Assembly: GCA_963703575.1 (NCBI GenBank)
Contig: CAVPEU010000026.1
Location: forward strand, 65,850 to 129,849
DNA length: 64,000 nt
Reading direction: 5' to 3'
From: an uncultured Chloroflexia bacterium
GTDB lineage: Bacteria > Chloroflexota > Limnocylindria > Limnocylindrales > CSP1-4
Part shown: piece after piece, positions 863 to 44,831 of the stretch
Layout: the number at the start of each line of letters is the position of its first letter
How positions within the stretch are numbered: the first letter of the stretch is position 1
Position numbers and translations under genes: made by a program
The notes under the pieces: generated by a model
Told to the model about the DNA's origin: nothing
Databases searched by the model: none
The model's input: only the letters and a program-made list of their open reading frames with translations

Positions 863-1566
863 CTACGTCCCGTCCGGCGCGCTCGTGGGCGAGGCCAGCG
901 CCGGGGTCATCTCGTGGCACAGCACGCAGGTCGAGTCCGCGCGCAACGCGTGGTTGATCGGGAGGGCGCCCACGTCCGCCGCCTGGTGGCAGGTCCGGCA
1001 GGTCAGGTCGGGCCGGTCCGGGTGCGGCTTCTGGGGTGGCGGCAGGGAGGCGGGCTTGTGGCACAGCCAGCAGTTGTCCTGGTTGCGCCCGACCATGCTC
1101 GATGGCAGGTGCGCGACCGATCCGTGGCACTCGAGGCACGGTCGGTTGAGGTTCGCGTGCGCCTGCGTGATCGCCGGGCCGTCCGGGGCCTCCTTGTGGC
1201 AGTTGAGGCATTCGCCCTGGGCGATGCCCTCGTGGCCCGGCGCCTTCCGCCCCAGCTCCTCGTTCGTGTGGCAGACGAGGCACGCCGTCCAGCCCGTCAG
1301 CGGGTGGCCGACGGCCGGGATCGTCTTGAGCCCGGCCGAGCCACCGGAGACATGGCACAGCAGGCAATCGGCGGAGGTCGGGATATGCGCCAGCCCCATC
1401 TCCATGGTCGGCACCGACGGTGACGCCGAGGCCGCGGGGCTCGCGTCGCCGGTCTGCGGCGGCAGGATCTCCAGCCAGTCCGCGATCATCGCGAAGGCGA
1501 GCAGGCCGACGACCAGGATGTTGGCGACGATCAGGGCCCGAAGGCCGAGGTCGACCTTGCTGTTCA
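863..1566 (-). CDS. Membrane-anchored heptaheme cytochrome c, last gene of the hydrogenase operon
   Basis: There are seven CxxCH motifs: CLLCH, CLVCH, CLNCH, CLECH, CWLCH, CRTCH, CVLCH. An N-terminal hydrophobic anchor reads LRALIVANILVVGLLAFAMIADWL. The ATG overlaps the hupD stop (ATGA). Confidence 0.8.
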
Positions 1567-2139
1567 TGCCGTCGCTCCTGTGGGCAGACCCGGTTGCGCG
1601 CGTCGAGCGGAGCCCGAGGCGGCGGCACGGGCATCGAGCGCCGCGAGCTCCCGGCGCGCCGCCGCCACCGCCCGCGGCATGGCGGCCGCCACGCGGGCGG
1701 ACAGCGCCGGGCCGGGCCCGATCTCCCCCACCCCGATCCCGACCACGGATACCGCGGCCGGCAGGACGCCCAGCATCGCCGCCACCGCCAGCAGCTCTTC
1801 GACCCCCCGGCCGCCGCCGCGCGCCGCGCGCCCGGCCCAGCCGCCGGTCGCGTGCGCGTCGCGCCGCGCGGTCACCGTCCCGGCGGGCGCGCCGAGGTCG
1901 GCGTCCACGATCAGCAGCCCCCGCGCGCCGTCGAGGTACCGGAGCAGGTCCAGGCCGAGCGTCCCGCCATCCACGAGGCGGGTCTCCGGCGGCAGGGCGT
2001 CCGGGTCCGCCTCGGCCGGTTCCCGCAGCGCCTCGGCCGGTTCCCGCAGCGCCTCGACCACGCGGACGCCGACCCCGTCGTCGCCGAGCAGGATGTTGCC
2101 GATCCCGATCGCGACCAGGGGCCCGTGCGTGGCGCTCAC
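1564..2139 (-). CDS. hupD: Hydrogenase maturation endopeptidase (HyaD/HupD/HybD family)
   Basis: LVAIGIGNILLGDDGVGVRVVEAL...LVDGGTLGLDLL is typical of the hydrogenase large-subunit C-terminal processing protease. It contains an in-frame 21-bp duplication (REPAEALREPAEA). It is translationally coupled to its neighbours. Confidence 0.8.
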   Translation of the reverse strand: MSATHGPLVAIGIGNILLGDDGVGVRVVEALREPAEALREPAEADPDALPPETRLVDGGTLGLDLLRYLDGARGLLIVDADLGAPAGTVTARRDAHATGGWAGRAARGGGRGVEELLAVAAMLGVLPAAVSVVGIGVGEIGPGPALSARVAAAMPRAVAAARRELAALDARAAASGSARRAQPGLPTGATA

Positions 2140-2927
2140 CCGATCCGCTCCAGGAGCTCGGGGCCGCCATCACGGGACTCCACGACCTCTTCCCGGGTCG
2201 GGAACTTGTAGCCCGCGATCATGCTCGACACCAGCCCGTTGTTCTCGATGTGGTCGACGAGGATGCAGCTGTACACGTGGAACACCGCGATCGCGAGGAT
2301 GGCCCACATCGCCAGGTGGTGCACCAGCCGCAGCAGCTGCGGCCCGAGCAGCTCGCGCAGCCAGCCGAACAGCGTCGCGCCGGGCTGGGCACCGGTGAGC
2401 CCGTCCAGCGCGAACCCGGTGACCACTTCGACGAGCAACAGCGCGAACAGCGCGAGGTACGCGGCCGCGGCCAGCTGGTTGTGCCCCAGGACCTTCGGGA
2501 TCTCCTTGCGGATGAACCCGTAGAAGCCGGCCTGCCGGAACAGCTCCATCGCCTGGTTGCGCGTCGTCGGGATGAACGCGGACCAGCGCGAGAACCGGTT
2601 GCCCGCCAGGAGCCAGTACGTGCGCACGAGGCCCGACAGGAGGAAGGCGAACGCGGTCAGGATGTGGACCGTCCTGATCGTGGACATCACGTTGCCGCCC
2701 GGGGGGATGAGGAACGGGTCGGCGATGTAGCCGCCGGTCAGGCTCAGGATCACGATGCAGGCCGCCGTCACCCAGTGCGTGACGCGGACGGGGATCTGCC
2801 ATACGTACAGGCGGACGCGCTCGTGCGGGCGATCGATGGCGTGGGCGGGCGCACCAACCGCAGTCGCGACGGGTTCGCCCACGCGGACGCGGCGCCGGAG
2901 CCGCAACCTGGACCGGATGGCGGTCAT
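2136..2927 (-). CDS. hupC: Ni/Fe-hydrogenase b-type cytochrome subunit
   Basis: The RLYVWQIPVRVTHWVTAACIVILSLTGGYIADPF motif is HyaC/HupC-like, and the protein has four TM helices. The start is the internal Met MTAIRS, whose ATG overlaps the large-subunit stop. Confidence 0.85.
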   Translation of the reverse strand: MTAIRSRLRLRRRVRVGEPVATAVGAPAHAIDRPHERVRLYVWQIPVRVTHWVTAACIVILSLTGGYIADPFLIPPGGNVMSTIRTVHILTAFAFLLSGLVRTYWLLAGNRFSRWSAFIPTTRNQAMELFRQAGFYGFIRKEIPKVLGHNQLAAAAYLALFALLLVEVVTGFALDGLTGAQPGATLFGWLRELLGPQLLRLVHHLAMWAILAIAVFHVYSCILVDHIENNGLVSSMIAGYKFPTREEVVESRDGGPELLERIG

Positions 2928-4690
2928 CGACGGGCCTCCCCGCCCAGCACGCGGACCTCGATCCCGCCGCTCGGGCGGTCGAGCGCGTGCACCGCGCACG
3001 CGGTGCACGGGTCGAACGAGTGGACGGTGCGCAGGATCTCGAGCGGCTGGGTCGCGTCCGCCACGGGCGTCCCGACCAGCGCCTCCTCCATCGGGCCCCG
3101 GGCGCCCGTCGCATCGCGCGGGGAGGCGTTCCACGTCGTCGCGTCCACCACCTGGTACCGCCGGACGACCCGGTCGCGGATGGTGACCCAGTGCCCGACC
3201 GCTCCCCGCGGGCCTTCGCCCAGCGACCACCCTTCGGCGGTGTCGGGCCAGGTCGACGGATCCCAGCGGCTCAGGTCGGCAACGGCGAGGTCCCCGGTCG
3301 ACAGGCTCGACTTGAGCTCCCGCAGCCAGCCGTCGGCTCGCCTGACGACGATGCTGGTCTCGACGGCCTTGGCCACGATCCGGCCCATCGTGCTCACCAG
3401 CCCGTCCGGCGACATGCCGACGGCGGTCATCGCGGTGCCGAGCGCCGACTGCGCATCGGTGTACCCGTCCGCGTAGGCCACCAGCAATCGCGCGAGCGGT
3501 CCCACCTCCATCGGCCGGCCGTCGTAGCGGGGCGCCTTGATCCAGCTGTACTGCGCCGATCCCTCCAGGGAGGTGACCGGCAGCGCCGGGCCCGAGTACA
3601 GGGGGCTGGTCTCGCCCGCGGCCGGGTGGCGGAGCGTCGCGATACCCTCCTGGTCCGTGTACCAGGCGTTGGCCACGGTCTCCGCCACGGCCTGCTGGTC
3701 CACGCTGTCCACGGCGGCCAGCCCCGGGGCCGCGACGCGGCCGCGCGGCAGGTAGAGCGAAGGCTTCGCACCGTCGCCCTCGGGGAACTCCCCGTAGGAG
3801 AGGAACCGCCCGACCCCGGCCCCGATGCCGGTCCAGTCCGGGTAGGCCTTCGCCAGCGCCAGCACGTCCGGCAGGAACAGCTGGTCAACGAAGGTCAGGG
3901 CGGCGTTCGTGAGGTCGTCCACGATCCTGAGGCCGGCCTCGCTCAGGGCCATGGGTGCGTCGTGCTCCGGCACGGGTGGGTGGGTACCCGGCCCGAGGGG
4001 ACCGCCCCATACCGGCGACAAGGTCATGCCGCCCACGAGATACGACTGCGGGTGCGGGTCCCGGCCGCCCAGCAGCGCATGGATCCGCATGTACCCGCGC
4101 TGCCAGTTCAGGGCCTCGAGCCCGTGCGCCAGGAGCAGCAGGTCCTGCTCCGGCGACAGCCGGTAGGCCGGGTGACCCCAGTAGCCGTTCGCGTACGGTC
4201 CGCCCTGCCCGGACGCCATCGCCGCCGAGAGGCGGTCGCGGATGCCGCTGAAGTAGTCCGGGCTGGACTGCGGCCAGCCGCCGAGCGAGCGAGCGAGCGT
4301 CGAGGTGGCCGCCGGGTCGGCGCCGAGCGCCGCCTCCGCATCGACCCAGTCGGGCAACTGGGCGAGGTAGAACTGGACGACGTGGTCGCGCACCAGCTGC
4401 GTGGCGGCCAGCAGGTTGCGGATGAGCCGGGCGTTGGTGGGGATCGTCACGCCCAGCGCACGCTCGACGGCGCGCACCGAGGCCAGCGCATGCACGCCGG
4501 TGCAGGTGCCGCAGATGCGCTCGGCCACCATCCAGGCATCCCGCGGATCGCGGTTCCGAAGGACGAGCTCGATGCCCCGGAACATCGTGCCGGAGCTCCA
4601 TGCGTCGGTGACCGTTCCGCCGGTGACCTCCGCCTCGACGCGCAGGTGGCCGCCGACACGCGTGACGGGATCGATCGCCATGCGCGCCAT
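2924..4690 (-). CDS. hupL: [NiFe] hydrogenase large subunit (group 1, membrane-bound uptake type)
   Basis: The N-terminal Ni-binding motif is RICGTCTGVH and the C-terminal motif is DPCTACAVH. The true start is MARMAIDPVTRVGGHLRVEAEV (ATG 4690..4688), 1 nt after the small-subunit stop. Confidence 0.9.
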   Translation of the reverse strand: MARMAIDPVTRVGGHLRVEAEVTGGTVTDAWSSGTMFRGIELVLRNRDPRDAWMVAERICGTCTGVHALASVRAVERALGVTIPTNARLIRNLLAATQLVRDHVVQFYLAQLPDWVDAEAALGADPAATSTLARSLGGWPQSSPDYFSGIRDRLSAAMASGQGGPYANGYWGHPAYRLSPEQDLLLLAHGLEALNWQRGYMRIHALLGGRDPHPQSYLVGGMTLSPVWGGPLGPGTHPPVPEHDAPMALSEAGLRIVDDLTNAALTFVDQLFLPDVLALAKAYPDWTGIGAGVGRFLSYGEFPEGDGAKPSLYLPRGRVAAPGLAAVDSVDQQAVAETVANAWYTDQEGIATLRHPAAGETSPLYSGPALPVTSLEGSAQYSWIKAPRYDGRPMEVGPLARLLVAYADGYTDAQSALGTAMTAVGMSPDGLVSTMGRIVAKAVETSIVVRRADGWLRELKSSLSTGDLAVADLSRWDPSTWPDTAEGWSLGEGPRGAVGHWVTIRDRVVRRYQVVDATTWNASPRDATGARGPMEEALVGTPVADATQPLEILRTVHSFDPCTACAVHALDRPSGGIEVRVLGGEARR

Positions 4691-4691
4691 G

Positions 4692-5927
4692 TCAGCGCAC
4701 CTCCGGGACAGCGGGCCCGGCAGGCTCCGGCTCGGGCGCCACGGCCTCGACCTCGGGCGCCACGGCCTCGGCGGGCGCCTCCGCCTCGGCGGGCGCCTCC
4801 GCCACGGCAGCCGCCCCCTCCGGCGCGCCGGCGAGCGCGACCGCAGCCCGTCGATCTGCCGCATCACGCCGTTTTCGGACGACGGTCATGCCCGCGCCAT
4901 GGAGCACCGCAAGACCGCCGACCCCGCCGACCAGCGCCGCGCCGACCAGGTCGGCCGTCAGGCCCGGGAACGCGGGCACCGGCGAAGGGAGCCGCAGGTA
5001 GAACGGGCTCATCGCGTCCCAGAAGCCGGGCATCGTGCAGCCGATGCAGCCGTGCCCGGCGCGCACGGGCCAGCTCGTGCCCTGCGCGAAGCGCTTCGAC
5101 GCGCAGTTGCCGAACGCCTCGGGGCCCTTGCACCCCATCTTGTACAGGCACCAGCCCTTCTGGGCGCCCTCGTCACCCCAGGACCGGACGAACTCGCCGA
5201 ACTCGAAGTGGGGCCGCCGTTCGCACTCGTTGTGGATCAGCATCCCGTACGCGAACAGCGGGCGACGCATCATGTCGGTCGCCGGCCACTCCTTGAACGC
5301 GAGGTAGTGGACGATCGTGGCGACCAGGTTCTCGACGTTCACCGGGCAGCCGGGAAGCGCGATCGTGGGCGTGTTCGAGACGACCTCGCGCAGGCTCGCG
5401 CTGCCGGTCACGCCACCCCCGGCGCCGGGCACGCCTCCGTCGAACGCGCACGCCCCGACCGCGATCGTCGCGAGGGCACCGTTGGCCACCTCGCGCACGA
5501 TGTCCACGAACGGCCGCCCGCCGACCAGGCAGAAGGCGCCGCCGGCCGCGGTCGGGATGCCGCCTTCCACCACGACGACGTACCCGTCCGGGTACCGCTC
5601 CATCGCGCTCGTCAGGGACAGGTCCGTCGCGGCGCCGGCCGGGGCCATCAGCGTCTCGTGGTACTCGAGCGAGAGGATGTCCAGCAGCAGCGAGGCGGTC
5701 GAGGGGTCCGGCGCCCGGAGGAAGGCCTCCGTCTCACCGCCGCAGTCCTGGCCGCGCAGCCAGATGACGGGCAGCCGCGGCGCCGTCTCCACCGCCTTCG
5801 CGATCCGCGGCGCGTACGCGGCCGGCAGGGCAAGGGCGGCCGTCATCGCGGTCGTGAACTGGAGGAATGCGCGGCGGGACATCCCGCGCCGAACCAGCGC
5901 GGCATAGATCCCGTCGTCTGCCATCAC
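4692..5927 (-). CDS. hupS: [NiFe] hydrogenase small subunit with Tat signal peptide
   Basis: SRRAFLQF is a twin-arginine motif. The Fe-S cluster cysteine pattern (GCxGC..., CIGCT) is present, followed by a C-terminal TM anchor and an Ala/Pro/Glu-rich repetitive tail. Confidence 0.9.
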   Translation of the reverse strand: MMADDGIYAALVRRGMSRRAFLQFTTAMTAALALPAAYAPRIAKAVETAPRLPVIWLRGQDCGGETEAFLRAPDPSTASLLLDILSLEYHETLMAPAGAATDLSLTSAMERYPDGYVVVVEGGIPTAAGGAFCLVGGRPFVDIVREVANGALATIAVGACAFDGGVPGAGGGVTGSASLREVVSNTPTIALPGCPVNVENLVATIVHYLAFKEWPATDMMRRPLFAYGMLIHNECERRPHFEFGEFVRSWGDEGAQKGWCLYKMGCKGPEAFGNCASKRFAQGTSWPVRAGHGCIGCTMPGFWDAMSPFYLRLPSPVPAFPGLTADLVGAALVGGVGGLAVLHGAGMTVVRKRRDAADRRAAVALAGAPEGAAAVAEAPAEAEAPAEAVAPEVEAVAPEPEPAGPAVPEVR

Positions 5928-6183: not shown

Positions 6184-6258
6184 TGGTGAGCCGGCAGGGA
6201 TTCGAACCCTGAACCTAGTGATTAAGAGTCACTTGCTCTACCGTTGAGCTACCGGCCC
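6184..6258 (-). tRNA. tRNA-Lys (anticodon CTT)
   Basis: The reverse complement folds as a cloverleaf: acceptor GGGCCGG/CCGGCTC, anticodon arm AGTGA-CTCTTAA-TCACT, T-arm GGTTCGAATCC, and an encoded CCA. Confidence 0.8.
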
Positions 6259-6315: not shown

Positions 6316-7825
6316 TCACCCCGGCTGGTTGTCGATCTGCGCCCGCTGCAGCCGGCCGCTGTAGTCCACGTACACGGCCTTCCACTCGGTGAACGTGTCC
6401 AGCGCGGCGTGGCCCGCCTCGCGGTGGCCGTTGCCGGTGTCCTTCCAGCCGCCGAACGGGAGGTGCGTCTCGGCCCCGGTCGTGCCGGCGTTGACGTAGA
6501 CGATGCCGGCCTCGAAGTCGCGCATCGCGCGGAAGGCGGTGTTCACGTCGCGGGTGAAGACGGACGCCGAGAGCCCGTACTTCACCTGGTTCGCGGCCGT
6601 CATCGCCTCCGCGTAGCCGTCGACCGGGACGACGGACAGCACGGGGCCGAAGATCTCCTCCTGGGCGATGGTGGCCATCGGCGCCACGCCCGTGAAGATC
6701 GTCGGGCGGTAGAAATGGCCGTGCTCGAGCCCGGCTCCGGTCGCGCGCTCGCCGCCCGTCACCAGCTCGCCCTCGCGGCGGCCGATGCCGACGTACCGCT
6801 CGACCTTGTCCACCGCCGGGGCGTTGACGAGCGGCCCGACGTCGGTGGCCTCGTCCAGGCCCGGGCCGAGGCGGAGGACCTTCGTGCGCGCCTCCAGCCG
6901 CGCGACCAGGTCGTCGGCCACGGGACCGGTCCACGATCACCCGCGAGCACGCCGTGCAGCGCTGGCCGGCCGTCCCGAACGCCGACCACAGGATCCCGTC
7001 CACGGCGAGGTCCAGGTCCGCGTCCCGGAGCACGACCACCGCGTTCTTGCCGCCGAGCTCCAGGCTCAGGCGCTTGAGCCGGCGTCCGGCGCGCTCCGCG
7101 ATCCCCCGCCCCGTCGCGGACGAGCCCGTGAACGAGATCACGCGCACGTCCGGGCTCTCGACGATCGCGTGCCCCACCTCCGCGCCGGCGCCGGTCACCA
7201 GGTTGACGACGCCGGGCGGGACGCCTGCCTCGTCCATGAGCTCCACCAGGAGGGTGGCGCAGTGCGGCGCGTCGGAGGCGGGCTTGAACACCACCGTGTT
7301 GCCGGTCACCAGCGCGGGCATCAGCTTCCAGCACGGGATCGCCACCGGGAAGTTCCAGGGCGTCACGATTCCGGCCACGCCGATCGGCTGGCGGATGCTC
7401 ATCGCCCACTTGTCCGGGAGCTCGGACGGGACCGTGTCGCCGAACATCCGCCGGCCCTCGCCGGCCATCAGGAACGCGATGTCGATCCCTTCCTGGACGT
7501 CGCCGCGGGCCTCGGTGAGGACCTTGCCCATCTCGCGGGTCATCGCGCGGGCAAGGCGCTCCTTGTGCTCCGCCATGAGCGCGCCGAAGCGATACAGGAT
7601 CTCGCCGCGCCTGGGGGCCGGTGTCGCCTTCCAGGCCGGCAGCGCCTCCTCGGCGGCGTGGATCGCCATGGCGGTGTCCGCGGCGGACCCGGCCTGGAAG
7701 CGGCCCACGATGTCCCGCGTGTCGGCGGGGTTGACGCTGTCGAAGGTCTCGCCGGAGACGCCGTCCACCCAGCGGCCGGCGATGAACAGGCGGAACACGG
7801 GAGCCTCGACGGCGGCCTCGGACAT
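6316..7825 (-). pseudogene. Aldehyde dehydrogenase (NAD(P)+) disrupted by a single-base frameshift near 6925
   Basis: The N-terminal part reads to ...ELGGKNAVVVLRDADLDLAVDGILWSAFGTAGQRCTACSRVIVDRS in one frame. The C-terminal part (V)ADDLVARLEARTKVLRLGPGLDEATDVGPLV... continues in the +1 frame from 6921. The junction gaccggtcccgtggccgac has an extra C in a CCC run. Confidence 0.7.
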
Positions 7826-8009
7826 CGGACAACCTCGCGTGACGGATGGGTCGACGTGCGGGTCGATCGTCCGGCGCACGGGGCACCCGCGTCAAACGCC
7901 GGGGGCCGTCGTCTCCCCGGCACCCGAGCCGATGAAGGCGTCACGCCCGTGGAGGCGTCAGACCGGTGGACGCGTCAGACCCGCTCGAAGGCCATCGCGA
8001 CGGGCCGCG

Positions 8010-9246
8010 TCAGGCCCGCTCGAAGGCCATCGCGACGGACCCACCGCCCCCCAGGCACAGGGTGGCCATGCCGTACCGGCCCTCGCGGCGGCGCAGCTCG
8101 TGGAGCAGCGTCGCGACGATGCGCGCGCCGCTGGCCCCGATCGGGTGCCCCAGCGCGATCGCCCCGCCGTTCACGTTCACCTTCGACCAGTCGAAGCCGA
8201 GCTCGCGCCCGTCCGCCAGGACCTGGGCGGCGAATGCCTCGTTGATCTCGATCAGGTCGAACGCGTCCGGCCCGAGGCCGGTCCGCGCCTCGAGCCCGCG
8301 GACGCCGTCGACCGGCGCCAGGAACAGCCACCTGGGCGTGACCTCGGCCTGCGCGTACCCGACGATCCGGGCGAGCGGCTTGAGGCCGTACCGCTCGACC
8401 GCCCGCTCCGAGGCGACGACCGTGGCCGCCCCGCCGTCGGTGATGCCCGGCGCGTTGCCCGCGGTGACCGTGCCGGTCGTGGCGGTGCCCCGGTCCTCGC
8501 CGGTCGGGAGGTCGAACACGGGCGCGAGCCGGGCCAGCGCCTCCGGGGTGGTGTCGCGGCGGGGGCTCTCGTCGGTGCTGATGACGGTCTCGCGGCCCTT
8601 CGCGTCGCGGATGGTCACCGGCGCCATCTCGTCGTCGAAGCGGCCGGCGTCCTGGGCCGCGATCGCATTCCGGTGGCTCGCCAGCGCCAGCGCGTCCTGG
8701 TCCTCGCGGCTCACCCCGGCCTTGATCGCCACGCGCTCGGCGTGGGTGCCCATGTGGCAGTCCTCGATCGAGCACCACAGGCCATCGAGCACGGTCGAAA
8801 TCCTCCAGTGTCCCGTTGCCCAGCCGGTAGCCGAAGCGGGCCTTGCGCAGGAGGAACGGCGCCTGGTTCATCGACTCCATGCCGCCCGCGACGTACAGGT
8901 CGCCGTCGCCGGCCTTCACCGAGGCTGCCGCGAACATGATCGCCTTGAGCCCGGAGCCGCAGACGCGGTTGATCGTGGTGGCGGGCGTCGTGTCCGCGAG
9001 GCCGGCCCGCAGGAGCGCCTGGCGTGCCGGGGCCTGGCCCGCGCCGGCCTGCAGCACCTGGCCCATGATCACCTCGTCGATCGGCGCCTCCGCCGGCAGC
9101 CCGGACCGGGTCACCGCCGCGCGGATGGCGGTCGCGCCGAGCTCCACCGCGGGCACGCCCGCCAGCGCGCCCCCGAACTTGCCGATCGGCGTGCGCGCCG
9201 CGCTGACGAGATAGACATGGCCGCTGGGGCCGCTCGTGAGGTCCAT
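8010..9246 (-). pseudogene. Acetyl-CoA acetyltransferase (thiolase) disrupted by a frameshift near 8795
   Basis: The N-frame [26 protein letters not shown]...[11 protein letters not shown]...[10 protein letters not shown] then loses the thiolase sequence. The C-frame (8792 downward) continues [25 protein letters not shown]...[25 protein letters not shown]...[15 protein letters not shown]. Confidence 0.7.
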
Positions 9247-10859: not shown

Positions 10860-10985
10860 CGGCCGGTGGCGGCCGCGCGGACCGGCGGCCGCGTGACGGC
10901 CGGTGCCGTGGTGCGGACCGGCGGCCGCGCGAGATGCGGGTCAGCGCGGAGATGCGGGTCAGCGCGGAGATCCCGGTCAGCGCGG
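10860..10985. repeat. Tandem repeats 3' of hbd: an approximately 36 bp unit x2, then an 18 bp unit (GATGCGGGTCAGCGCGGA) x3
   Basis: Read directly from the sequence. The last copy overlaps the hbd stop codon. Confidence 0.75.
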
Positions 10986-11837
10986 GTAGGTGTGGAACCC
11001 GCGGCCCGTCTTCTGGCCGAGATGGCCGGCCGCGACCAGGTCCTCCAGCACGCGCGGTGGCCGGAAGTGTTCCTGGCCGAACCCCTCGTGCAGCACGCGC
11101 ATCACCCCGAGGCAGACGTCCAGGCCGATGAAGTCCGCCAGCTCCAGCGGGCCCATCGGGTGGTTGAGCCCGACCTTCGCCCCGGTGTCGATGTCCTCGG
11201 CCGTGCCCAGGCCCTCCTCGTAGGCCCGCATCGCCTCCGCCAGGAACGGCATCAGGATCCGGTTGACGATGAACCCCGGCCGGTCCGCGGACGCGATGAC
11301 CTGCTTGCCCAGCTCCGCGGCAAGCGCCCGGACCGCGGCCTCCGTCTCGTCGCTGGTGGCGGAACCGCGGATGAGCTCGATCAGCGGCATCACCGGCACG
11401 GGGCTGAAGAAGTGCATCCCGACGAAGCGGGCTCGCCGCTCCTCGGACACCGCCGCCGCCAGCCGGTCGATCGAGATCGAAGACGTGTTGGAGGCAAAGA
11501 TCGCGCCCGCCGGGGCGATCCCGTCGAGCGCCGCCCACAGGCCGGTCTTCACGTCGACATCCTCGAACACGGCCTCGACCACGAGGTCCGCATCGCCGGC
11601 GGCCGCGAGGTCCGAGGTCGCCGCCAGGCGGGCCAGCGTCGCCTCCCGGGCCTCGGGCGACAGCTTCCCCTTCGCGACCGCCCGGTCGAGGTTGCCGGCG
11701 ATCCGGTCTCGCCCGGCCTGCGCCCGCGCGGGATCCGGCTCGTAGATCGTGACGGCCTTGCCGGTCGCGGCATGGACCTGGGCGATCCCGTGCCCCATCA
11801 GGCCGGCACCGGCGACGAACACGCGCTCCATCGTCAT
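10977..11837 (-). CDS. hbd: 3-hydroxybutyryl-CoA dehydrogenase
   Basis: MTMERVFVAGAGLMGHGIAQV is the NAD-binding GxGxxG motif. Hbd/FadB C-terminal domain signatures include NTSSISI and FFSPVPVMPLIELIRG. An AGGAG ribosome-binding site precedes the ATG. Confidence 0.85.
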   Translation of the reverse strand: MTMERVFVAGAGLMGHGIAQVHAATGKAVTIYEPDPARAQAGRDRIAGNLDRAVAKGKLSPEAREATLARLAATSDLAAAGDADLVVEAVFEDVDVKTGLWAALDGIAPAGAIFASNTSSISIDRLAAAVSEERRARFVGMHFFSPVPVMPLIELIRGSATSDETEAAVRALAAELGKQVIASADRPGFIVNRILMPFLAEAMRAYEEGLGTAEDIDTGAKVGLNHPMGPLELADFIGLDVCLGVMRVLHEGFGQEHFRPPRVLEDLVAAGHLGQKTGRGFHTYPR

Positions 11838-12826
11838 CGTGGCTCCTCGCTGCTCAGGGCGGCCAGCAGGCGGTCCGCCGCCGCATACGGATCCAGGTCG
11901 TGGGTGGCGACCGCCGTGATCGCCGCGTCCGTGGCGGGGGCCATGGGCGCGGCCTCCAGGCGCTCCCACAGCCGCTCGACGACCACCGCCCGCACCTGCG
12001 CCGCCGCACGGGCTCGCCGCGCTGCGGCGGTCGCCCCGTCGCCACCGATGGCGCGATGCCGGTCCAGCGCCACCAGCAGCTCCGGGATCCCCTCGCCGGT
12101 GACCGCGGTCGTGACCAGGACCTCCGGCCGCTTGGGCGCCGGTCGGGCCGGGTCCGCGTCACGCGCGGCCGCCGGGACCAGCATCGCGCGCAGCTGGGCC
12201 GCCGTCCGCTGCGCGCCCGGCCGGTCGCCCTTGTTGACCACGACGATGTCCGCGACCTCGAGCAACCCGGCCTTGATCGCCTGGACCTCGTCGCCCATCT
12301 CGGGTGCCTCGAGGACCACCGTCGTGTCGGCGGCCGCCGCGACCTCGACCTCGCTCTGCCCGGTCCCGACCGTCTCGAGCAGCACGACGTCGAACCCGGC
12401 CGCCGCGAGGACGGCGGCTGCGGCCGTGGAGGTCGCCGCAAGCCCCCCGGCGTGCCCTCGCGAAGCCATCGACCGGATGAACACGCCGTCGTCCGCGGCA
12501 TAGGCCTGCATCCGGACGCGGTCTCCCAGCAGCGCGCCGCCGGTGATCGGCGAGCTCGGGTCCACGGCCACGACGGCGACGGTCCGGCCGGCGCGGCGCA
12601 GCTCCGCGATGAGCGCGGCGACCAGCGTGGACTTGCCGGCGCCCGGCGGACCCGTGATCCCGACCAGGTGCGCGGCACCGGCGAACGGGTACAGCCGGCG
12701 CAGGGCGAACTCGGCCAGCGACGTCCGGTTCTCGACGGCGGTCAGGAGCCGCGCAAGCGCGCGCCGATCCCCGCCGCGCGCGGCGTCGGCAAGGGTCGCG
12801 GCGCGCTCCGCCGACGCGTCCGCCAC
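11834..12826 (-). CDS. meaB: Methylmalonyl-CoA mutase-associated G-protein chaperone (MeaB/ArgK family)
   Basis: GITGPPGAGKST is a P-loop. The MeaB-like layout includes VVNKGD. The probable GTG start at 12826 overlaps the hbd start by 4 nt. Confidence 0.8.
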   Translation of the reverse strand: MADASAERAATLADAARGGDRRALARLLTAVENRTSLAEFALRRLYPFAGAAHLVGITGPPGAGKSTLVAALIAELRRAGRTVAVVAVDPSSPITGGALLGDRVRMQAYAADDGVFIRSMASRGHAGGLAATSTAAAAVLAAAGFDVVLLETVGTGQSEVEVAAAADTTVVLEAPEMGDEVQAIKAGLLEVADIVVVNKGDRPGAQRTAAQLRAMLVPAAARDADPARPAPKRPEVLVTTAVTGEGIPELLVALDRHRAIGGDGATAAARRARAAAQVRAVVVERLWERLEAAPMAPATDAAITAVATHDLDPYAAADRLLAALSSEEPR

Positions 12827-12836
12827 GTTACGCGCG

Positions 12837-13241
12837 CTACTCGCGCGGCTTCGCGTTCGCCCGGATGAACTCGGCGACCTCGCGGATCGTCGTTCCCGGC
12901 CCGAACACCCCCGCCACGCCCGCAGCCTTGAGCGGCTCGACGTCATCGTCCGGGATGATCCCGCCGACGGTCACCAGGACGTCGTTCAGGCCTCGCTCGC
13001 GTAGCTGCGCGCACACCCGGGGCACGAGCGTCATGTGGGCGCCCGACAGGATCGACAGGCCCACCACGTCGACGTCCTCCTGGAGCGCCGCGGTCACGAT
13101 CATCTCGGGTGTCTGGCGAAGGCCCGTGTACACGACCTCGAAGCCCTCGTCGCGGAGGCCGCGCGCGAGCACCTTGGCGCCGCGATCGTGGCCGTCGAGG
13201 CCGGGCTTCGCGATCAGGACCTTGAGCGGTCGATCGGTCAT
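12837..13241 (-). CDS. B12-binding small subunit of a split acyl-CoA mutase (IcmB/HcmB/MCM C-terminal-domain-like)
   Basis: [49 protein letters not shown] carries the DxHxxG cobalamin-binding motif. Confidence 0.8.
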
Positions 13242-14442: not shown

Positions 14443-14646
14443 CGTGTTCCTCCTGAGCTCCGGGACGGGCGGGGCTCGCCATTGGCTCGACGCGACCCGA
14501 GCGATCCGGGTTGTGGGTCGCGCGTCAACGCCTCCCGTCGGGGAACGCGGCGGAGTATGCGGGATCGGGTGATGCTGCGCCCACGCAGACCACGTGGTGC
14601 AACGGAGTCCGGTGCGCGGACGCACCGATCGCCGGCTGCGCCCGCG

Positions 14647-18564: not shown

Positions 18565-19577
18565 CGGTCCGCGGCAAGCGGCCCGGCGGCGGCGACCAGG
18601 TCCGCCAGCCGGTCGATCGCGACGTTCCCGCCGGACAGGATCACGCACACCCGGTCACCGCCCCTGAGCGGGATCGCGCCCGACAGCACGGCGGCAAGCG
18701 CGGCCGCGCCGGCCGGCTCGACCACCTGCTTGAGCCGCTCCAGGGCGAACCGGAGCCCGGCCAGGATCGTCGCGTCATCGACCAGGACGACGTCGTCGAC
18801 GTACCGCCGCGCGATGTCGATCGCGAGCACGCCGGCCTCGGCCGCACCCAGGCCGTCCGCGACGCTGTGCGGCGTGATCCGTACCGGCTCACCGGCATCG
18901 ATCCCCCTGCGCAGGGCGTCCGAGTTCACGGGCTCCACGCCGTACATGCGCACCGACGGACGGCTCTCCTTGAGCGCCACGGCCAGCCCGCCGATCAGCC
19001 CCCCACCGCCGACGGCCACGACGACGACGTCCACGTCCGGCAGGTCCTCCAGGATCTCCAGGCCGCACGACCCGTTCCCGATCAGCACTTCGGGATCGTC
19101 GTAGGGGTGGACCAGGGTGAGGCCGCGCTCCGCGCGCAGCTGCTCGACGTAGGCGGCTGACTCCCCCACGTGGGCGCCGTGGAGCACGACGTCGGCGCCG
19201 TACTCCAGGCAGGCGGCCACCTTGGACGCGACGGCGCCCTCCGGCATCACCACCGTGACCGGGACGCCGGCCTCACGTCCGGCCCACGCGTAGGCCTGGC
19301 CGGCATTCCCGGCCGAGATCGTGACCGCGCCCCGCCGGCGCTCTTCCGGCGTGAGCGTGGACATCCGCGCGAGGGCCGCCCGCGGCTTGAACGAACCCGT
19401 CTTCTGGAGGTGCTCCGCCTTGAGATACAGCCGCCCGTCGCCGAGCGACGTGCCCGAGGCAGCGCCGGCCACGCGGGCCGCCGTCGCCGATGACAGCATC
19501 GGGGTGTGGTGGACGCGGCCGCGCAACAGCACCCGCATCTCGCGGATCGCGGCCAGGTCCACGCGCAGATCGGTCAT
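18561..19577 (-). CDS. Threonine dehydratase / threonine ammonia-lyase (PLP-dependent)
   Basis: KAEHLQKTGSFKPRAA contains the PLP-lysine motif. GGGGLIGG is a glycine-rich loop. Confidence 0.85.
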   Translation of the reverse strand: MTDLRVDLAAIREMRVLLRGRVHHTPMLSSATAARVAGAASGTSLGDGRLYLKAEHLQKTGSFKPRAALARMSTLTPEERRRGAVTISAGNAGQAYAWAGREAGVPVTVVMPEGAVASKVAACLEYGADVVLHGAHVGESAAYVEQLRAERGLTLVHPYDDPEVLIGNGSCGLEILEDLPDVDVVVVAVGGGGLIGGLAVALKESRPSVRMYGVEPVNSDALRRGIDAGEPVRITPHSVADGLGAAEAGVLAIDIARRYVDDVVLVDDATILAGLRFALERLKQVVEPAGAAALAAVLSGAIPLRGGDRVCVILSGGNVAIDRLADLVAAAGPLAADR

Positions 19578-19678: not shown

Positions 19679-19975
19679 GTGATCGACACCTATCCGAGGT
19701 CCGAGGCCGAGCGCCAGCGGTCAGCCGCCGTCGCGCGTGCCCTCGGCGACCCGAAGCGCCTGTGCGTCCTCGAGTCCCTCGCCGGCGGCGAGGCGTCCGT
19801 GGGCGAGCTCGCGGCGCGGGTGAGCTGCCACGTGCCGAACATGAGCCAGCACCTCGCGGTGCTGCGCTCGGCCGGTCTCGTCACCGCCCGCCGGGATGGG
19901 AACACGGTCTACTACCGCCTCGCGGACCCCCGGGTCCTGGAGGCATACCAGCTACTTCAGACCATCGCCCGCTGA
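19679..19975 (+). CDS. ArsR/SmtB-family transcriptional regulator
   Basis: LADPKRLCVLESLAGGEASVGELAARVSCHVPNMSQHLAVLRSAGLV is a winged helix. Confidence 0.85.
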   Translation: MIDTYPRSEAERQRSAAVARALGDPKRLCVLESLAGGEASVGELAARVSCHVPNMSQHLAVLRSAGLVTARRDGNTVYYRLADPRVLEAYQLLQTIAR

Positions 19976-20444: not shown

Positions 20445-20873
20445 TCAGTGGCTTCGATCCCCGCCGGCGGCACGCCGATGCGCGAACCGCACCCAGGCCT
20501 CGGCCCGATCCAGCGCGAACCGGTCCGTCACGGCGGGGCTGAACGTGACCCAGCCGGCACCACGCGACGAGGGCCGCGTGTCCGGGGTGGCGAGGGCCGC
20601 CCTGGCCACGGAGCCTTCGAGCGCGACGTCCAGCGTCTCATCACCCAGGATCGCGAACACGCGACCACCGACGCCGAGCATCTCCCGGCCGCCGTCCCGC
20701 GTCCGCGCGACGCCCTCCAGCTCCTCGATCACCGCGCCGACGCGCTCGTCCAGCGACTCGTCGGCCGCCGCCGCGGCGGCTGCGGCACCGGCGGCCGCCT
20801 CGATCTCCTCCAGCGGCAAGTCGTCGTCCTCGTCCTCCGGCTCGAGCCCGTGTCCGTTGCGCTCGTCCGTCAT
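20445..20873 (-). CDS. Hypothetical protein with an acidic N-terminus and a TfoX-N-like C-terminal domain
   Basis: The N-terminus reads EPEDEDDDLPLEEIEAAAG followed by A10. The C-terminus reads GGRVFAILGDETLDVAL...GWVTFSP. Confidence 0.4.
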   Translation of the reverse strand: MTDERNGHGLEPEDEDDDLPLEEIEAAAGAAAAAAAADESLDERVGAVIEELEGVARTRDGGREMLGVGGRVFAILGDETLDVALEGSVARAALATPDTRPSSRGAGWVTFSPAVTDRFALDRAEAWVRFAHRRAAGGDRSH

Positions 20874-21355
20874 CGACCGGCGGCCTCGAGGATCGCGCGC
20901 AGCTCCTTGAGGTGCTCCTCGTAGTGCTCGGTCGTCTCCCCGAAGAACCACTCCTGGTGCTTCGCGTGCTTGATCCAGCGGGCCTCGGGCACGGCGGTCA
21001 GGTAGCCGCGGAGCTCGCCGGCCGTCTCCCGGAACCGGCGCCGGACCTCGGGCAGCGGCATCGCGCGGAAGCGATCCATCGCCTCCGCGTTCATCCGGTC
21101 ACCGGCCCCCGGGACCTCCCACTCGGCGTCGAGCCGCTCGAAGGTCGGGCTCGCCTCCCCCAGCGCGAGCTCCTTCGCCGTGGCCAGCGCGGCCTCCTGC
21201 CACGCGACCATGTGGCCCATGAGATCCCGGCCGGACCAGCCGTTGGCGGCCTCCACCGGCCTGTCCAGCTGCTCGTCCGTCAGGGCGTCGAGGGCCTCGT
21301 AGGCGCGAAACATGTCGCGCTCGTCTTCCAGGAAGGAGAGGGCGTCGAGGTACAT
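20870..21355 (-). CDS. ClbS/DfsB (DinB-like four-helix-bundle) family protein
   Basis: About 160 aa with conserved GWSGRDLMGHMVAWQE and WIKHAKHQEWFFGETTEHYEEHL blocks. It overlaps the downstream gene by 4 nt. Confidence 0.5.
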   Translation of the reverse strand: MYLDALSFLEDERDMFRAYEALDALTDEQLDRPVEAANGWSGRDLMGHMVAWQEAALATAKELALGEASPTFERLDAEWEVPGAGDRMNAEAMDRFRAMPLPEVRRRFRETAGELRGYLTAVPEARWIKHAKHQEWFFGETTEHYEEHLKELRAILEAAGR

Positions 21356-21380: not shown

Positions 21381-23174
<1,794 letters not shown>

Positions 23175-23314
23175 GGCCACGACTCTAGCACGCGGTCCGC
23201 TCCGGTCTCCGGGGCCGGGGTGCGGCCTCATCCTCGGCCCACCGGTCGCGGCAGGCGAGTGGCGCGCCACGCCTCCGGCGGCGAGCGGCGGCGCGCCGCG
23301 CCTCCGGCGGCGGC

Positions 23315-23935
23315 CTACCTCGAGGCGAACGTCTCCAGCGCCGCGAGCACCTTCGCGTCGCCGAGGTCGGCGGCCAGCAGCACGTTCACGGTCCCCGGCT
23401 CCGTGGACGGCCACGCGACGATCGTCTGGCCGGTGCCGTCCGTCTGGAGCACGTCCAGGCGGCTCGCAGCCCTCCCGCCGACGGTGGATTCGGCGATCTG
23501 CGCCTTCTCGGTCTTGCTGTTGGCGCGTGCGCCGGCGGCATAGAAGGCGATCATCGCCGAGGGCGTGAGGCCCTCGGCCTGGAACACGGCGACAGTCAGC
23601 GCCGTCGTCCCGCCAAGATCCCAGGTGGCGCCCGCGAACCGCAGCTCCGCGACCCCGGTCGAAGCCAGCGTCCCGAGCGCGCTCGTCGTGCAGCTGCGCC
23701 CGGAGTCCACGTTGACCGGTGCCTGGCCCTCGTACGTCCTGGGCAAGGTCGCCTCCAGGTCCGGGTAGGCGCCCGGCTGGCGGCCGTCGGTCGTGCACGC
23801 GCTGGCCGGGTCGAAGCTGGTCACCGGGATGGATGGGCCGCAGGCGGCGATGACGAGGCTGAAGACGACGGCCACCAGGCCGACCGGACGGACGACTGTG
23901 GGCGTGACGGGGCGTGACGGGGCGTGACGGGGCAT
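23315..23935 (-). CDS. Putative lipoprotein
   Basis: [16 protein letters not shown] is a signal plus lipobox. The 5' end carries a 10 bp x3 tandem repeat (GGGCGTGACG) encoding [11 protein letters not shown]. Confidence 0.5.
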
Positions 23936-30538: not shown

Positions 30539-32608
30539 ATGCAGATGCTCGCCCGCCCCATCGGTCTCGGTCTCGCCGCCCGCGGCGACGTGGATGAGGT
30601 CACCGGCTGGGCGAAGCAGGCCCGTGACGGCGGCCTCGACTCCGTCTGGGTCCACGACAGCTACTTCGAGCGCGACGGCGTCAGCTTCACGACGGCCATC
30701 GCGCAGGCCATCGCTGCCGAGGACGACGGTGACGAGGCGGGCTTCCGGGTCGCCCTGGGGGCCGTGAACCCGTTCACGCGCCATCCGGTCGTGCTGGCGA
30801 TGACCGGCTCCGCCCTGGACGAGATCCTGCCCGGGCGCATCGTGATGGGGATCGGCACCGGCCTGCCCCTCCGCCTCAGGCAGATGGGGATCCCGTACGA
30901 CCCCGACACCGCCATCGAGGTCGTGTCCGGGGCGATGGACCAGATGCGCGCCCTGTGGGCCGGCGAGCGGCTCCCGTCCGCGACCCCGGGACTGCCGCCC
31001 ATCCAGCCGATGTTCCCGCCCACCCACCGGATCCCGCTCGTGATCGCGGCCTATCGCAAGGCGTTCGTGGAGCTGGCCGGCCGCAAGGCCGACGGCTACC
31101 TCGCCCGACCGGCGGAGTCGATCCCCTCCCTGGGCGGGATCATCGAGCGGCTCCGGGCATCCGCCGAGGCCGCCGGGCGCGATCCCCTGTCGATCGAGAC
31201 CGCGGGCTACCTCCTGTCGCTCGTGGACAAGACGCGGCGCGAGGCACTGAACCGGGCGAAGCGCGAGCCGTTCGTGATCTACATGATGGCCATCCTGTCG
31301 GATGTGTCCCTCCAGCGCGCGGGCTTCGACGCGGAGCTGCGCGACCGGATCGCCGCGGCCTGGCGGGTCGAGGACTACACGACGGCGGGCAACCTCATCC
31401 CGGACGAGCTGCTGGACGCGTTCATGCTGTGCGGCACCCGCGAGGACGTCGCCGCGGGCGCGATGGCGTTCCACGCGCGGGCGGGCCTCCAGCTGCCGTT
31501 GCTCCAGCCGGTGCTCCAGGAGGACCGGCAGATCGAGGAGCTGATCGCCGCCGCCGCGGTCTACGCGCAGGTCGCGCAGGCTGCCCCCGCCCGCGAGCCG
31601 GGCGTGGCGGCGACCGTGTCCGCCTCCGGCGCGCCGGAGGCCGGGAGCGGCGCCCTAGCCCCCTCCCTCGCGGACGATCGGACCCTCGGGTCCGGCGAGC
31701 GCCTCCGGCGGCGAGCGGGCGCGCTGTGGGAGATCCTGCGGCCGTTCGCGTTCACGGCCTCGATCGTCCCCGTCCTCGCCGGCAGCGCCCTGGCCTGGGC
31801 GGATGGCCTGTGGAGCTGGCCACCGTTCGTCGCCGCCCTCGTCGCCGGGGTGCTCCTGCACTCCGGGACCAACATCGTCAACGAGGTGTACGACGTCCGG
31901 AAGGGCATCGACACGATCACCAGCCCACGCGCCAGCCACGCCATCGTGGAGGGACGCATGAGCGAGCGAAACGCGCTGGTCGCCGCGGCGGTCGCGTTCG
32001 CGCTGGCCACCGCCGTGGGCGTGTACCTCGCCTGGCTGCGGGGCCCCGCCATCGTTGCCCTGGGGCTCCTCGGGCTCGTCGCCGGCTGGGGATACACGGC
32101 GCCGCCGCTCGAGTACAAGAACCGCGCCCTGGGCCTGCCGCTGGTGTTCCTGCTCATGGGCCCGCTGATGACCGTGGGCGGCTACTTCGCCGTCAGCGGC
32201 GCGTGGTCCGGGACCGCGCTCGTGCTCTCGGTCCCGGTGGGACTGCTGGTGGCGGCGATCCTCCACGGCAACGAGTGGCGCGATATCCGCGAGGACACCC
32301 GGGCCGGGATCTCGACGCTGTCCGCCCGGGTCGGGCGGCAGTGGGCGCACTACGGCTACGTGGGCCTGGTCCTGGGCGCCTACATGGTGCTCGCCCTGTC
32401 CGTGATCGCGCGCATCCTGCCGCCGGCGACCATGCTGGCCGTCCTGTCGCTGCCGTTCCTGGCCCAGGTCATCCGCTCGGCGGAGCTGGGGGCCACCGGC
32501 CAAGCGCGCGCGATCGCGATGATCGACCTCCAGACCGCTCGGCTGCACATGACCTTCGGCCTGCTCCTGGTGCTGGGCCTGGTGCTGTCGAGGGTGATGG
32601 GTGGCTAG
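30539..32608 (+). CDS. In-frame fusion of an LLM-class (F420/flavin-dependent luciferase-like) oxidoreductase to a UbiA/MenA-family aromatic prenyltransferase
   Basis: Residues 1-340 carry the LLM TIM-barrel (GLDSVWVHDSY..., GIGTG). A roughly 45 aa Ala/Pro/Gly linker follows. Residues 390-690 have 8-9 TM helices with NIVNEVYDVRKGID (NDxxDxxxD-type) and a second Asp-rich region. No stop separates the two parts. Confidence 0.6.
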   Translation: MQMLARPIGLGLAARGDVDEVTGWAKQARDGGLDSVWVHDSYFERDGVSFTTAIAQAIAAEDDGDEAGFRVALGAVNPFTRHPVVLAMTGSALDEILPGRIVMGIGTGLPLRLRQMGIPYDPDTAIEVVSGAMDQMRALWAGERLPSATPGLPPIQPMFPPTHRIPLVIAAYRKAFVELAGRKADGYLARPAESIPSLGGIIERLRASAEAAGRDPLSIETAGYLLSLVDKTRREALNRAKREPFVIYMMAILSDVSLQRAGFDAELRDRIAAAWRVEDYTTAGNLIPDELLDAFMLCGTREDVAAGAMAFHARAGLQLPLLQPVLQEDRQIEELIAAAAVYAQVAQAAPAREPGVAATVSASGAPEAGSGALAPSLADDRTLGSGERLRRRAGALWEILRPFAFTASIVPVLAGSALAWADGLWSWPPFVAALVAGVLLHSGTNIVNEVYDVRKGIDTITSPRASHAIVEGRMSERNALVAAAVAFALATAVGVYLAWLRGPAIVALGLLGLVAGWGYTAPPLEYKNRALGLPLVFLLMGPLMTVGGYFAVSGAWSGTALVLSVPVGLLVAAILHGNEWRDIREDTRAGISTLSARVGRQWAHYGYVGLVLGAYMVLALSVIARILPPATMLAVLSLPFLAQVIRSAELGATGQARAIAMIDLQTARLHMTFGLLLVLGLVLSRVMGG

Positions 32609-44631: not shown

Positions 44632-44707
44632 TAGGAGGTGTGGCGCCCCCGACAGGAATCGAACCTGTGACCTACCGCTTAGAAGGCGGCTGCTCTATCC
44701 GCTGAGC
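44632..44707 (-). tRNA. tRNA-Arg (anticodon TCT)
   Basis: The reverse complement GCCCCCGTAGCTCAGCGGATAGAGCAGCCGCCTTCTAAGCGGTAGGTCACAGGTTCGATTCCTGTCGGGGGCGCCA forms a cloverleaf with complementary acceptor stems and T-arm GGTTCGATTCC. Confidence 0.8.
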
Positions 44708-44831
44708 TACGGGGGCGTCGGTTACCGGCTCAGTCTACGCAGGCGCCCGGGTATCTGACCGCCGGCCGGTTCGATCCCGGCTCTCGACCAATCCGCGACG
44801 GGCGACCGGATTCGCCACCCATCCCGGGCAG

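Follow-up and report, generated by a model that had tools for sequence, protein, structure and literature searches.

A putative split B12-dependent isobutyryl-CoA mutase, with a MeaB-type chaperone and a 3-hydroxybutyryl-CoA dehydrogenase, encoded by uncultured Limnocylindria

The window, the whole 64,000-nucleotide stretch of DNA analysed here, encodes a B12-dependent acyl-CoA mutase in two separate parts, together with its chaperone and enzymes of C4 acyl-CoA metabolism. The features discussed below are as follows.

12837-13241, minus strand: B12-binding small subunit (IcmB-like), 134 aa (PF02310, 95.6 bits; TIGR00640, 182 bits against a cutoff of 57)
11834-12826, minus strand: MeaB-type G-protein chaperone, 330 aa (TIGR00750, 330 bits against a cutoff of 240.75; PF03308, 296.6 bits)
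10977-11837, minus strand: 3-hydroxyacyl/3-hydroxybutyryl-CoA dehydrogenase (Hbd), 286 aa, the last gene of the operon (PF02737 and PF00725)
21381-23174, minus strand: acyl-CoA mutase large (catalytic) subunit, 597 aa (PF01642, 697.8 bits; PDB alignments; signature tables)
8010-9246, minus strand: acetyl-CoA C-acetyltransferase (thiolase) (TIGR01930, 282.9 bits; Thiolase_N and Thiolase_C)

The small-subunit, meaB and hbd genes run in the same direction and are tightly packed: the GTG start codon of meaB lies 10 nt past the stop codon of the small subunit, and an ATGA overlap joins the stop of meaB to the start of hbd. This three-gene cluster agrees with the original prediction in its coordinates and in the overlap. 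A search for promoter-like or terminator-like sites around the operon found none. The large-subunit gene, which begins with ATG at 23174 (or alternatively GTG at 23180), is located 8.1 kb away from the operon, between an upstream lipoprotein-like open reading frame and, downstream, a DinB-family gene and another small open reading frame. Its product was correctly described beforehand as a catalytic subunit without a B12 domain, since PF01642 is its sole domain match, covering residues 97-589 of 597. The gene layout is kept across Limnocylindria (Chloroflexota), and the large subunit keeps 77-91% identity over 80 genome species of this class.

Sequence alignment of the small subunit revealed a GLDGHDRG segment, which corresponds to the DxHxxG motif of base-off/His-on cobalamin binding. 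In pairwise comparison the subunit is closest to the Streptomyces IcmB orthologue, with 58% identity, compared to 47-49% for HcmB and 47% for the PcmB sequence. The MeaB protein has the P-loop GPPGAGKST and an NKGD motif, and scores above the equivalog cutoff of TIGR00750. As had been proposed, the B12 subunit is predicted to be functional rather than MutA-like and to be served by a MeaB chaperone. Hbd reaches 345.8 bits against NF004474, under the cutoff of 408, so that its assignment holds at the family level. The hbd gene follows meaB in 17 of the 20 related loci that could be evaluated; at the other three, the gene after meaB is membrane-transporter-like (L004 and L033) or a different gene (L013), and a universal hbd linkage was therefore ruled out.

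The thiolase gene belongs to a transcription unit of its own, and a single extra T near 8793-8797 interrupts its reading frame, with Thiolase_N divided over two frames and Thiolase_C following. It is a possible downstream enzyme of the pathway discussed below.

At one related locus (L014), a c-di-GMP-II-GCG/GAG variant riboswitch aptamer precedes the start codon of the small subunit by 134 nt. We know of no validated ligand for this variant. Searching 83 sources with a model based on three riboswitch hits yielded no additional convincing copy, and a weak match at L013 (25.5 bits, E 0.06) was disregarded; the idea that the riboswitch generally accompanies the small-subunit operon was hence rejected. 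Such control, if true, would tie a signalling molecule to the expression of a B12 mutase.

The specificity positions of the large subunit were fixed from PDB sequences and one secondary citation, a passage of which (PMC7238569) credits Jost et al. 2015 with defining two specificity sites, occupied by Tyr and Arg in methylmalonyl-CoA mutase (MCM). The numbering of the Propionibacterium shermanii MCM reproduces the residues Y75, T77, M78, R82, T85, R87, Y89, R207, Y243 and H244. Where the 1REQ numbering gives RQYAGFS, the entry 5REQ reads RQFAGFS and the window protein RMFAGFG. We take 5REQ to be the Y89F mutant of MCM, and its Phe at position 89 places Tyr89 opposite Phe123 of the window protein. 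Accordingly, the specificity residues are Phe123 (Tyr89 in MCM), Ala150 (Asp117 in 2-hydroxyisobutyryl-CoA mutase, HCM) and Gln241 (Arg207 in MCM), and Tyr277/His278 are conserved. The 23-residue stretch quoted in the original prediction is indeed present, but the His highlighted in it, His109, aligns with Tyr75 of MCM rather than with the site that carries Tyr, Phe or Ile in characterised enzymes. The different specificity once read from this His was based on a misaligned position, and 79 of the 120 IcmA orthologues from Streptomyces also have His there.

Comparison at positions 89/116/207 revealed distinct signatures. The MCM references have Y-A-R; four HCM or HCM-context proteins (4R3U, PM1, Xaut_5021 and ELW1) have I-D-Q; and Xaut_5043, which together with Xaut_5044 presumably is the characterised pivalyl-CoA mutase PcmAB, has L-L-N. 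The window protein has F-A-Q, as do the 566-aa IcmA orthologues of Streptomyces, which are 93% identical to the S. cinnamonensis IcmA sequence and are labelled isobutyryl-CoA mutase large subunit in some sources. F, A and Q occur without exception in the window protein and 120 of its homologues, as well as in 120 orthologues from Streptomyces. The expectation of a split acyl-CoA mutase distinct from MCM is thus upheld, with Phe/Gln replacing the Tyr/Arg pair of MCM; the substrate is probably a C4 acyl-CoA as anticipated, isobutyryl-CoA mutase (ICM) having been among the options listed.

Given these residues, we propose that the four genes probably encode a heteromeric AdoCbl-dependent isobutyryl-CoA mutase (butyryl-CoA:isobutyryl-CoA mutase) and its accessory and follow-on enzymes. 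It is most likely an ordinary two-part B12 enzyme, and nothing points to a new specificity. We infer the steps of its mechanism from the enzyme family. The 134-aa subunit would pair with the large subunit and hold AdoCbl in the base-off/His-on state via the His of GLDGHDRG, whereas the acyl-CoA would be bound by the 597-aa TIM-barrel subunit. There, Phe123 and Gln241, in place of the Tyr/Arg that hold the carboxylate of methylmalonyl-CoA, would leave room for a C4 acyl group that bears no charge. A radical 1,2-shift between isobutyryl-CoA and n-butyryl-CoA would then be set off by homolysis of the Co-C bond, and the MeaB GTPase would gate both the loading of cofactor and the clearance of cofactor that has been damaged. 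Hbd may act on 3-hydroxybutyryl-CoA and acetoacetyl-CoA, perhaps along with the thiolase encoded nearby. Butyryl-CoA of valine or isobutyrate origin would in this way be connected to acetyl-CoA, or the route would operate in the reverse direction. Other F-A-Q proteins, encoded on Haloterrigena and Deinococcus plasmids, are located near genes of acyl-CoA dehydrogenase or MaoC hydratase, which is consistent with a butyryl-CoA product. Neither a butyryl-CoA dehydrogenase gene nor a crotonase gene accompanies the operon, and the sole acyl-CoA dehydrogenase of the window (34741-35946) lies ~11.6 kb from the large subunit.

An ICM-like Phe/Gln pocket might also serve another or broader natural substrate, such as isovaleryl-CoA or pivalyl-CoA, through lineage-specific changes next to the pocket, although we regard this as unlikely. 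Compared to Streptomyces IcmA, the window protein has Met122 for Gln88, Tyr151 for Phe117, Asp for Asn366 and Tyr for Leu368. Every member of the Limnocylindria clade has Met122 (121/121), Tyr151 occurs in 114 of 121 members, and Asp is found at position 366 in both clade members tabulated; Gln88 is shared by all references for MCM, HCM and the ICM of Streptomyces. Moreover, the core identity to the characterised type of IcmA is 53.5%, and the grouping with that type is weakly supported, as only 20 of 100 neighbour-joining (NJ) bootstraps recover a single clade that holds every F-A-Q protein, Streptomyces IcmA among them. IcmF, with the same Phe/Gln pair, has low pivalyl-CoA mutase activity. 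However, F-A-Q proteins from several phyla differ from one another at position 88 (Q, M or L), and to our knowledge no natural enzyme with the Phe/Gln pair has been characterised as anything other than an isobutyryl-CoA mutase. The presumed dedicated pivalyl-CoA mutase, Xaut_5043, carries the very different L-L-N signature; its active-site pattern, which combines Leu/Leu/Asn with a Gln opposite Tyr243, is not that of the window protein, which has F/A/Q and Tyr277 and shares 40.7% core identity with it. Overall, it seems rather improbable that either the clade-fixed changes next to the pocket confer a substrate other than isobutyryl-/butyryl-CoA, or the c-di-GMP-II-GCG/GAG riboswitch controls the operon in some members.

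A split methylmalonyl-CoA mutase of the archaeal/Bacillales type is far less probable. The source databases and NCBIfam give these genes only generic MCM-family names, and the core of the large subunit is 59.0% identical to a Y-A-R split mutase of Brevibacillus whose gene adjoins those of methylmalonyl-CoA epimerase and carboxyltransferase. As this similarity is close to that with Streptomyces IcmA, the isobutyryl-CoA assignment rests mainly on a few active-site residues. At these positions, the carboxylate-binding Arg207 is replaced by Gln and Tyr89 by Phe throughout the 121 sequences, whereas all 73 sampled Y-A-R proteins retain both Tyr and Arg. Because the NJ tree left the deep branches unresolved, sister-group bootstraps and discriminating positions were used instead. 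The sister group of the Limnocylindria clade consists of F-A-Q proteins only in 180 of 200 NJ bootstraps, against a single replicate for Y-A-R proteins, and at the positions separating F-A-Q from Y-A-R proteins the window protein has the F-A-Q-group state (3/3). In addition, the scan of the window's predicted genes turned up neither an epimerase nor a propionyl-CoA carboxylase. Firm clustering with MCMs together with a MutA-type small subunit, which the original prediction had named as evidence against itself, was not observed.

The reading preferred in the original prediction, an HCM that converts 2-hydroxyisobutyryl-CoA to 3-hydroxybutyryl-CoA for direct oxidation by the adjacent Hbd, did not hold up and is likewise very improbable. 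HcmA (4R3U) is the best PDB match to the large subunit, with 546 bits against ~470 for MCMs, because the PDB has no unfused IcmA. The plasmid-borne HCM clusters of Methylibium PM1 and Mycobacterium ELW1 do include a 3-hydroxybutyryl-CoA dehydrogenase gene; nevertheless, an hbd neighbour suits ICM equally well, since the β-oxidation of butyryl-CoA also runs via 3-hydroxybutyryl-CoA, and it is missing after meaB in three of 20 loci as noted above. By contrast, Ile90 and Asp117, part of the I-D-Q signature in 4/4 HCM or HCM-context proteins, are replaced by Phe and Ala. At the positions separating F-A-Q from HCM proteins, the window protein shows the F-A-Q-group state at 14/14 and the HCM state at 0/14, and none of 100 NJ bootstraps unites Limnocylindria with the HCM clade. 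The core identity to HcmA is 49%, lower than the 53.5% to IcmA orthologues. Moreover, PM1, Xanthobacter and ELW1 have an AMP-binding ligase and a GntR gene, whereas no AMP-binding 2-hydroxyisobutyrate-CoA ligase, GntR or cob(I)alamin adenosyltransferase domain was found among the scanned predicted genes of the window.

If the isobutyryl-CoA mutase assignment is right, widespread uncultured Limnocylindria of soil and groundwater carry a strongly conserved B12-dependent isobutyryl-CoA mutase and would depend on cobalamin, with a route between valine-/isobutyrate-derived and straight-chain C4 metabolism. It would also correct the generic database name 'methylmalonyl-CoA mutase' for these genes, and add to the family a divergent ICM lineage with an icmB-meaB-hbd operon layout. 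The ICM family is of interest for the production of branched C4 chemicals. The kind of enzyme itself is not new: judged by its residues, this is most likely a member of the known ICM type.

Among the closest known systems is IcmA/IcmB of Streptomyces (S. cinnamonensis; EC 5.4.99.13), which also consists of a B12-less large subunit and a DxHxxG small subunit of ~135 aa encoded by unlinked genes. Besides Phe/Ala/Gln, Streptomyces IcmA and the window protein have in common a His or Tyr opposite Tyr75 of MCM and a Gly opposite Met78 (PTGY). However, the identity to IcmA/IcmB is just 53.5% over the large-subunit core and 58% over the small subunit, and the window protein has Met for Gln88 and an N-terminal insertion of ~36 residues (positions 53-88). 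Furthermore, the small-subunit gene sits here in an operon with meaB and hbd, whereas in Streptomyces the icmB orthologue is a solitary gene without a meaB in its vicinity.

Outside Limnocylindria, the window protein is most closely related to the split Phe/Ala/Gln mutases encoded on plasmids of Deinococcus sp. KNUC1210 and Haloterrigena turkmenica, with core identities of 61.8% and 56.6%, respectively, the former sharing the RMF motif of the window protein. Both enzymes are uncharacterised. Similar to the window, both plasmids carry meaB and small-subunit genes, but the large-subunit, small-subunit and meaB genes lie within ~2 kb of one another, close to the acyl-CoA dehydrogenase or MaoC genes mentioned above, and hbd is absent.

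HcmA/HcmB of Aquincola tertiaricarbonis (4R3U) and Methylibium PM1 resembles the present system in its split architecture, MeaB-like chaperone and nearby 3-hydroxybutyryl-CoA dehydrogenase gene. The HCM genes are contiguous (hcmB-hcl-meaH-hcmA), in contrast to the large subunit 8 kb away and no hcl ligase gene found in the window, and Phe/Ala here take the place of Ile90/Asp117. The fused isobutyryl-CoA mutase/GTPase IcmF (4XC6) likewise combines a B12 domain, a MeaB-like G domain and a substrate barrel. It joins them in one polypeptide and is distant in sequence (270 bits, compared to 546 for HcmA), whereas three separate proteins supply these parts here.

Gene calling relied on third-position G+C content, as the window is G+C-rich (73%). 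Together with Pfam and NCBIfam matches, it confirmed the predicted layout of a separate small subunit, MeaB, 3-hydroxyacyl-CoA dehydrogenase (Hbd) and a remote large subunit:

12837-13241 (-), small subunit, B12-binding, 134 aa (Pfam and NCBIfam)
11834-12826 (-), MeaB, 330 aa (Pfam and NCBIfam)
10977-11837 (-), Hbd, 3-hydroxyacyl-CoA dehydrogenase, 286 aa (Pfam and NCBIfam)
21381-23174 (-), large subunit, 597 aa (PF01642)

The first three genes run head to tail on the minus strand: MeaB has a GTG start 10 nt past the small-subunit stop, and its own stop shares an ATGA overlap with the hbd ATG. The large subunit has PF01642 as its sole domain match and lacks a B12 domain. It is flanked at 23315-23875 (-) on the upstream side, with a lipoprotein-like ORF that has no family match, and at 20445-21355 (-) on the downstream side, with a DinB/MDMPI_N-family gene after 26 nt and a further small ORF, also lacking a family match. 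Relative to HcmA and Streptomyces IcmA, its N-terminal arm carries an acidic, Gly/Pro-rich insertion of ~36 residues (residues 53-88, about 22911-23018), which is less conserved than the barrel across 120 homologues (0.71 vs 0.93).

Alignment of the large subunit with the PDB sequences of solved structures was unambiguous, and position mapping was fixed via P. shermanii MutB numbering, which reproduces Y75, T77, M78, R82, T85, R87, Y89, R207, Y243 and H244. References for methylmalonyl-CoA mutase (MCM) and for HcmA of 2-hydroxyisobutyryl-CoA mutase (HCM) came from the PDB alignments, and HCM clusters from plasmids of Methylibium PM1, Xanthobacter Py2 and Mycobacterium ELW1. Streptomyces orthologues (566 aa) of IcmA, from isobutyryl-CoA mutase (ICM), were found with an S. 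cinnamonensis IcmA query, to which they are 93% identical; in some sources they are annotated as the large subunit of isobutyryl-CoA mutase. PDB 5REQ, which we take to be the Y89F mutant of MCM, has Phe in RQFAGFS. Xaut_5043/5044 is presumably the characterised pivalyl-CoA mutase (PCM). We assume Ile90/Asp117 as the specificity residues of HCM and Phe80/Gln198 as those of ICM, and the reference sequences bear both pairs out.

According to PMC7238569, Jost et al. defined two specificity sites, Tyr and Arg in MCM. In the window, MCM Tyr89 corresponds to Phe123 (context RMFAGFG), MCM Arg207 to Gln241 (YVAQKEF) and HcmA Asp117 to Ala150 (LSIAYDMPT). The resulting F-A-Q signature is invariant in the window protein and its 120 closest homologues.

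Signature at positions 89 / 116 / 207 and core identity to the window large subunit
Window large subunit: F-A-Q
Deinococcus plasmid protein: F-A-Q, 61.8%
Brevibacillus protein, epimerase/carboxylase gene context: Y-A-R, 59.0%
Haloterrigena plasmid protein: F-A-Q, 56.6%
Streptomyces IcmA: F-A-Q, 53.5%
HcmA: I-D-Q (the signature of the HCM group), 49%
Canonical MCM: Y-A-R, 43-46%
PcmA (presumed): L-L-N, 40.7%

Among 150 sampled family representatives, F-A-Q proteins are told apart from Y-A-R proteins by three positions and from HCM proteins by 14, and the window protein has the F-A-Q state at 3/3 and 14/14, respectively. In a neighbour-joining tree it falls among the F-A-Q proteins, beside the HCM clade. 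The Limnocylindria clade has 100% bootstrap support; its sister group contains only F-A-Q proteins in 180/200 replicates and Y-A-R proteins in 1/200, and it never joined the HCM clade (0/100). The F-A-Q proteins form one clade with only 20% support. As core identities are close across several groups, they do not establish orthology of the large subunit with IcmA; the ICM assignment is based on active-site residues and nearest neighbours.

The original interpretation is supported in part, namely for a C4 acyl-CoA mutase distinct from MCM, but not for HCM or for the argument from His. The window mutase is best read as a putative AdoCbl-dependent isobutyryl-CoA/n-butyryl-CoA mutase, a predicted C4 acyl-CoA mutase of known type. 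An ICM-like pocket that accepts a different substrate is possible but unlikely. It would fit the departures from Streptomyces IcmA at Met122, fixed in the Limnocylindria clade, at Tyr151 (114/121 clade sequences), at position 366, which is Asp in both clade members tabulated, and at position 368, which is Tyr in the window and His in the other. The His in which altered specificity had been suspected does not add to these: His109 (GVHPTGY) aligns with MCM Tyr75, and the same position in Streptomyces IcmA orthologues is H in 79/120 and Y in 41/120, so His is already common there and uninformative on a new specificity. HCM, originally preferred, is very improbable, as the Ile/Asp pair is missing, no ligase gene was found within the window and the HCM state occurs at 0/14 discriminating positions; the hbd linkage is compatible with HCM and equally so with ICM. 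A split MCM is no more credible than HCM, with the Tyr/Arg pair missing and no epimerase or carboxylase gene found within the window.

The small subunit contains GLDGHDRG, a DxHxxG motif, and is therefore predicted to be a working B12 domain rather than a MutA-like relic. It is 58% identical to a Streptomyces IcmB orthologue and 47-49% to HcmB and the presumed PcmB, and MeaB scores above its equivalog cutoff. In the isobutyryl-CoA/n-butyryl-CoA mutase proposed here, the small subunit would hold AdoCbl and the barrel subunit the acyl-CoA, with Phe123 and Gln241 replacing the MCM Tyr/Arg pair that binds the substrate carboxylate. MeaB would handle cofactor loading and repair, and Hbd, perhaps with a thiolase 1.7 kb downstream, would link butyryl-CoA beta-oxidation intermediates with acetyl-CoA. 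We infer the pairing of these two subunits, the substrate and the pathway direction.

This thiolase gene is split over two reading frames, and a conserved 10-residue stretch is regained once a single T is deleted from the run in 'gaggatttcgacc'; the cause is either a recent frameshift or an error in sequencing the homopolymer. A nearby aldehyde dehydrogenase has its N-terminal ~300 aa in one frame and its C-terminal 201 aa in another, with 2,5-dioxovalerate and alpha-ketoglutaric semialdehyde dehydrogenases as best NCBIfam matches. That two genes are disrupted within 3 kb points to indels in the assembly. The sole acyl-CoA dehydrogenase of the window lies ~11.6 kb from the large subunit, unclustered with the mutase genes.

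8010-9246 (-), thiolase, break near 8793-8797
about 6316-7900 (-), aldehyde dehydrogenase, junction near 6921-6940
863-5927 (-), [NiFe]-hydrogenase cluster: small subunit, large subunit, cytochrome b, maturation protease, multihaem cytochrome c
367-798, MerR/TOBE regulator
30539-32608 (+), luciferase-like monooxygenase and UbiA prenyltransferase domain fusion, 689 aa
34741-35946 (-), short-chain-type acyl-CoA dehydrogenase
36081-37385 (+), class-III aminotransferase, divergent from the acyl-CoA dehydrogenase
6187-6258, 44644-44716 and 53268-53341 (all -), tRNA genes

A c-di-GMP-II-GCG variant riboswitch aptamer (RF03170; 67.3 bits vs gathering score 47.9) lies at 14459-14544 (-), closely followed by an AGGAGGA ribosome-binding site and GTG. 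It precedes a ScyD/ScyE-family gene, on the same strand as the small subunit, that ends 86 nt ahead of the latter. In the related Limnocylindria locus L014, the aptamer (19000-19088, +) immediately precedes the small-subunit gene, at a distance of 134 nt, and is followed by a G+C-rich hairpin; in another, L055, a GAG variant (19809-19897, +) precedes a ScyE-family gene. When 83 sources were scanned with a model based on all three aptamers, no other convincing copy came up; a weak match in the related locus L013 (25.5 bits, E 0.06) was disregarded.

The best 80 genome loci, at 77-91% identity, are all MAGs of the Chloroflexota class Limnocylindria, whose homologues are named in source databases only as MCM-family proteins. 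Related loci share the order lipoprotein-like ORF (70/82), large subunit and DinB-family gene (75/82), then an unrelated run including thioredoxin, ArsR, a PLP-dependent enzyme and GTP cyclohydrolase I, with the small subunit, MeaB and hbd coming last, indicating that the 8-10 kb subunit separation is stable in the class. No functional link to the mutase was seen among the intervening genes of these loci. Hbd directly follows MeaB in 17/20 evaluable loci, and is replaced by a membrane-transporter-like gene in L004 and L033 and by another gene in L013.

Elsewhere, the Haloterrigena and Deinococcus F-A-Q genes are close to acyl-CoA dehydrogenase or MaoC genes. The Deinococcus sp. KNUC1210 plasmid locus L083, with the closest large subunit outside Limnocylindria, has an unannotated small-subunit ORF (7544-7900, +) between meaB and the large subunit; its N-terminal DxHxxG region is apparently missing, and it may be a pseudogene. 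In Streptomyces, neither the icmA nor the icmB orthologue has a gene for its partner subunit or for MeaB within 8-10 kb. Separate subunit genes are thus nothing new for this enzyme family, and the icmB-meaB-hbd operon is the local variation.
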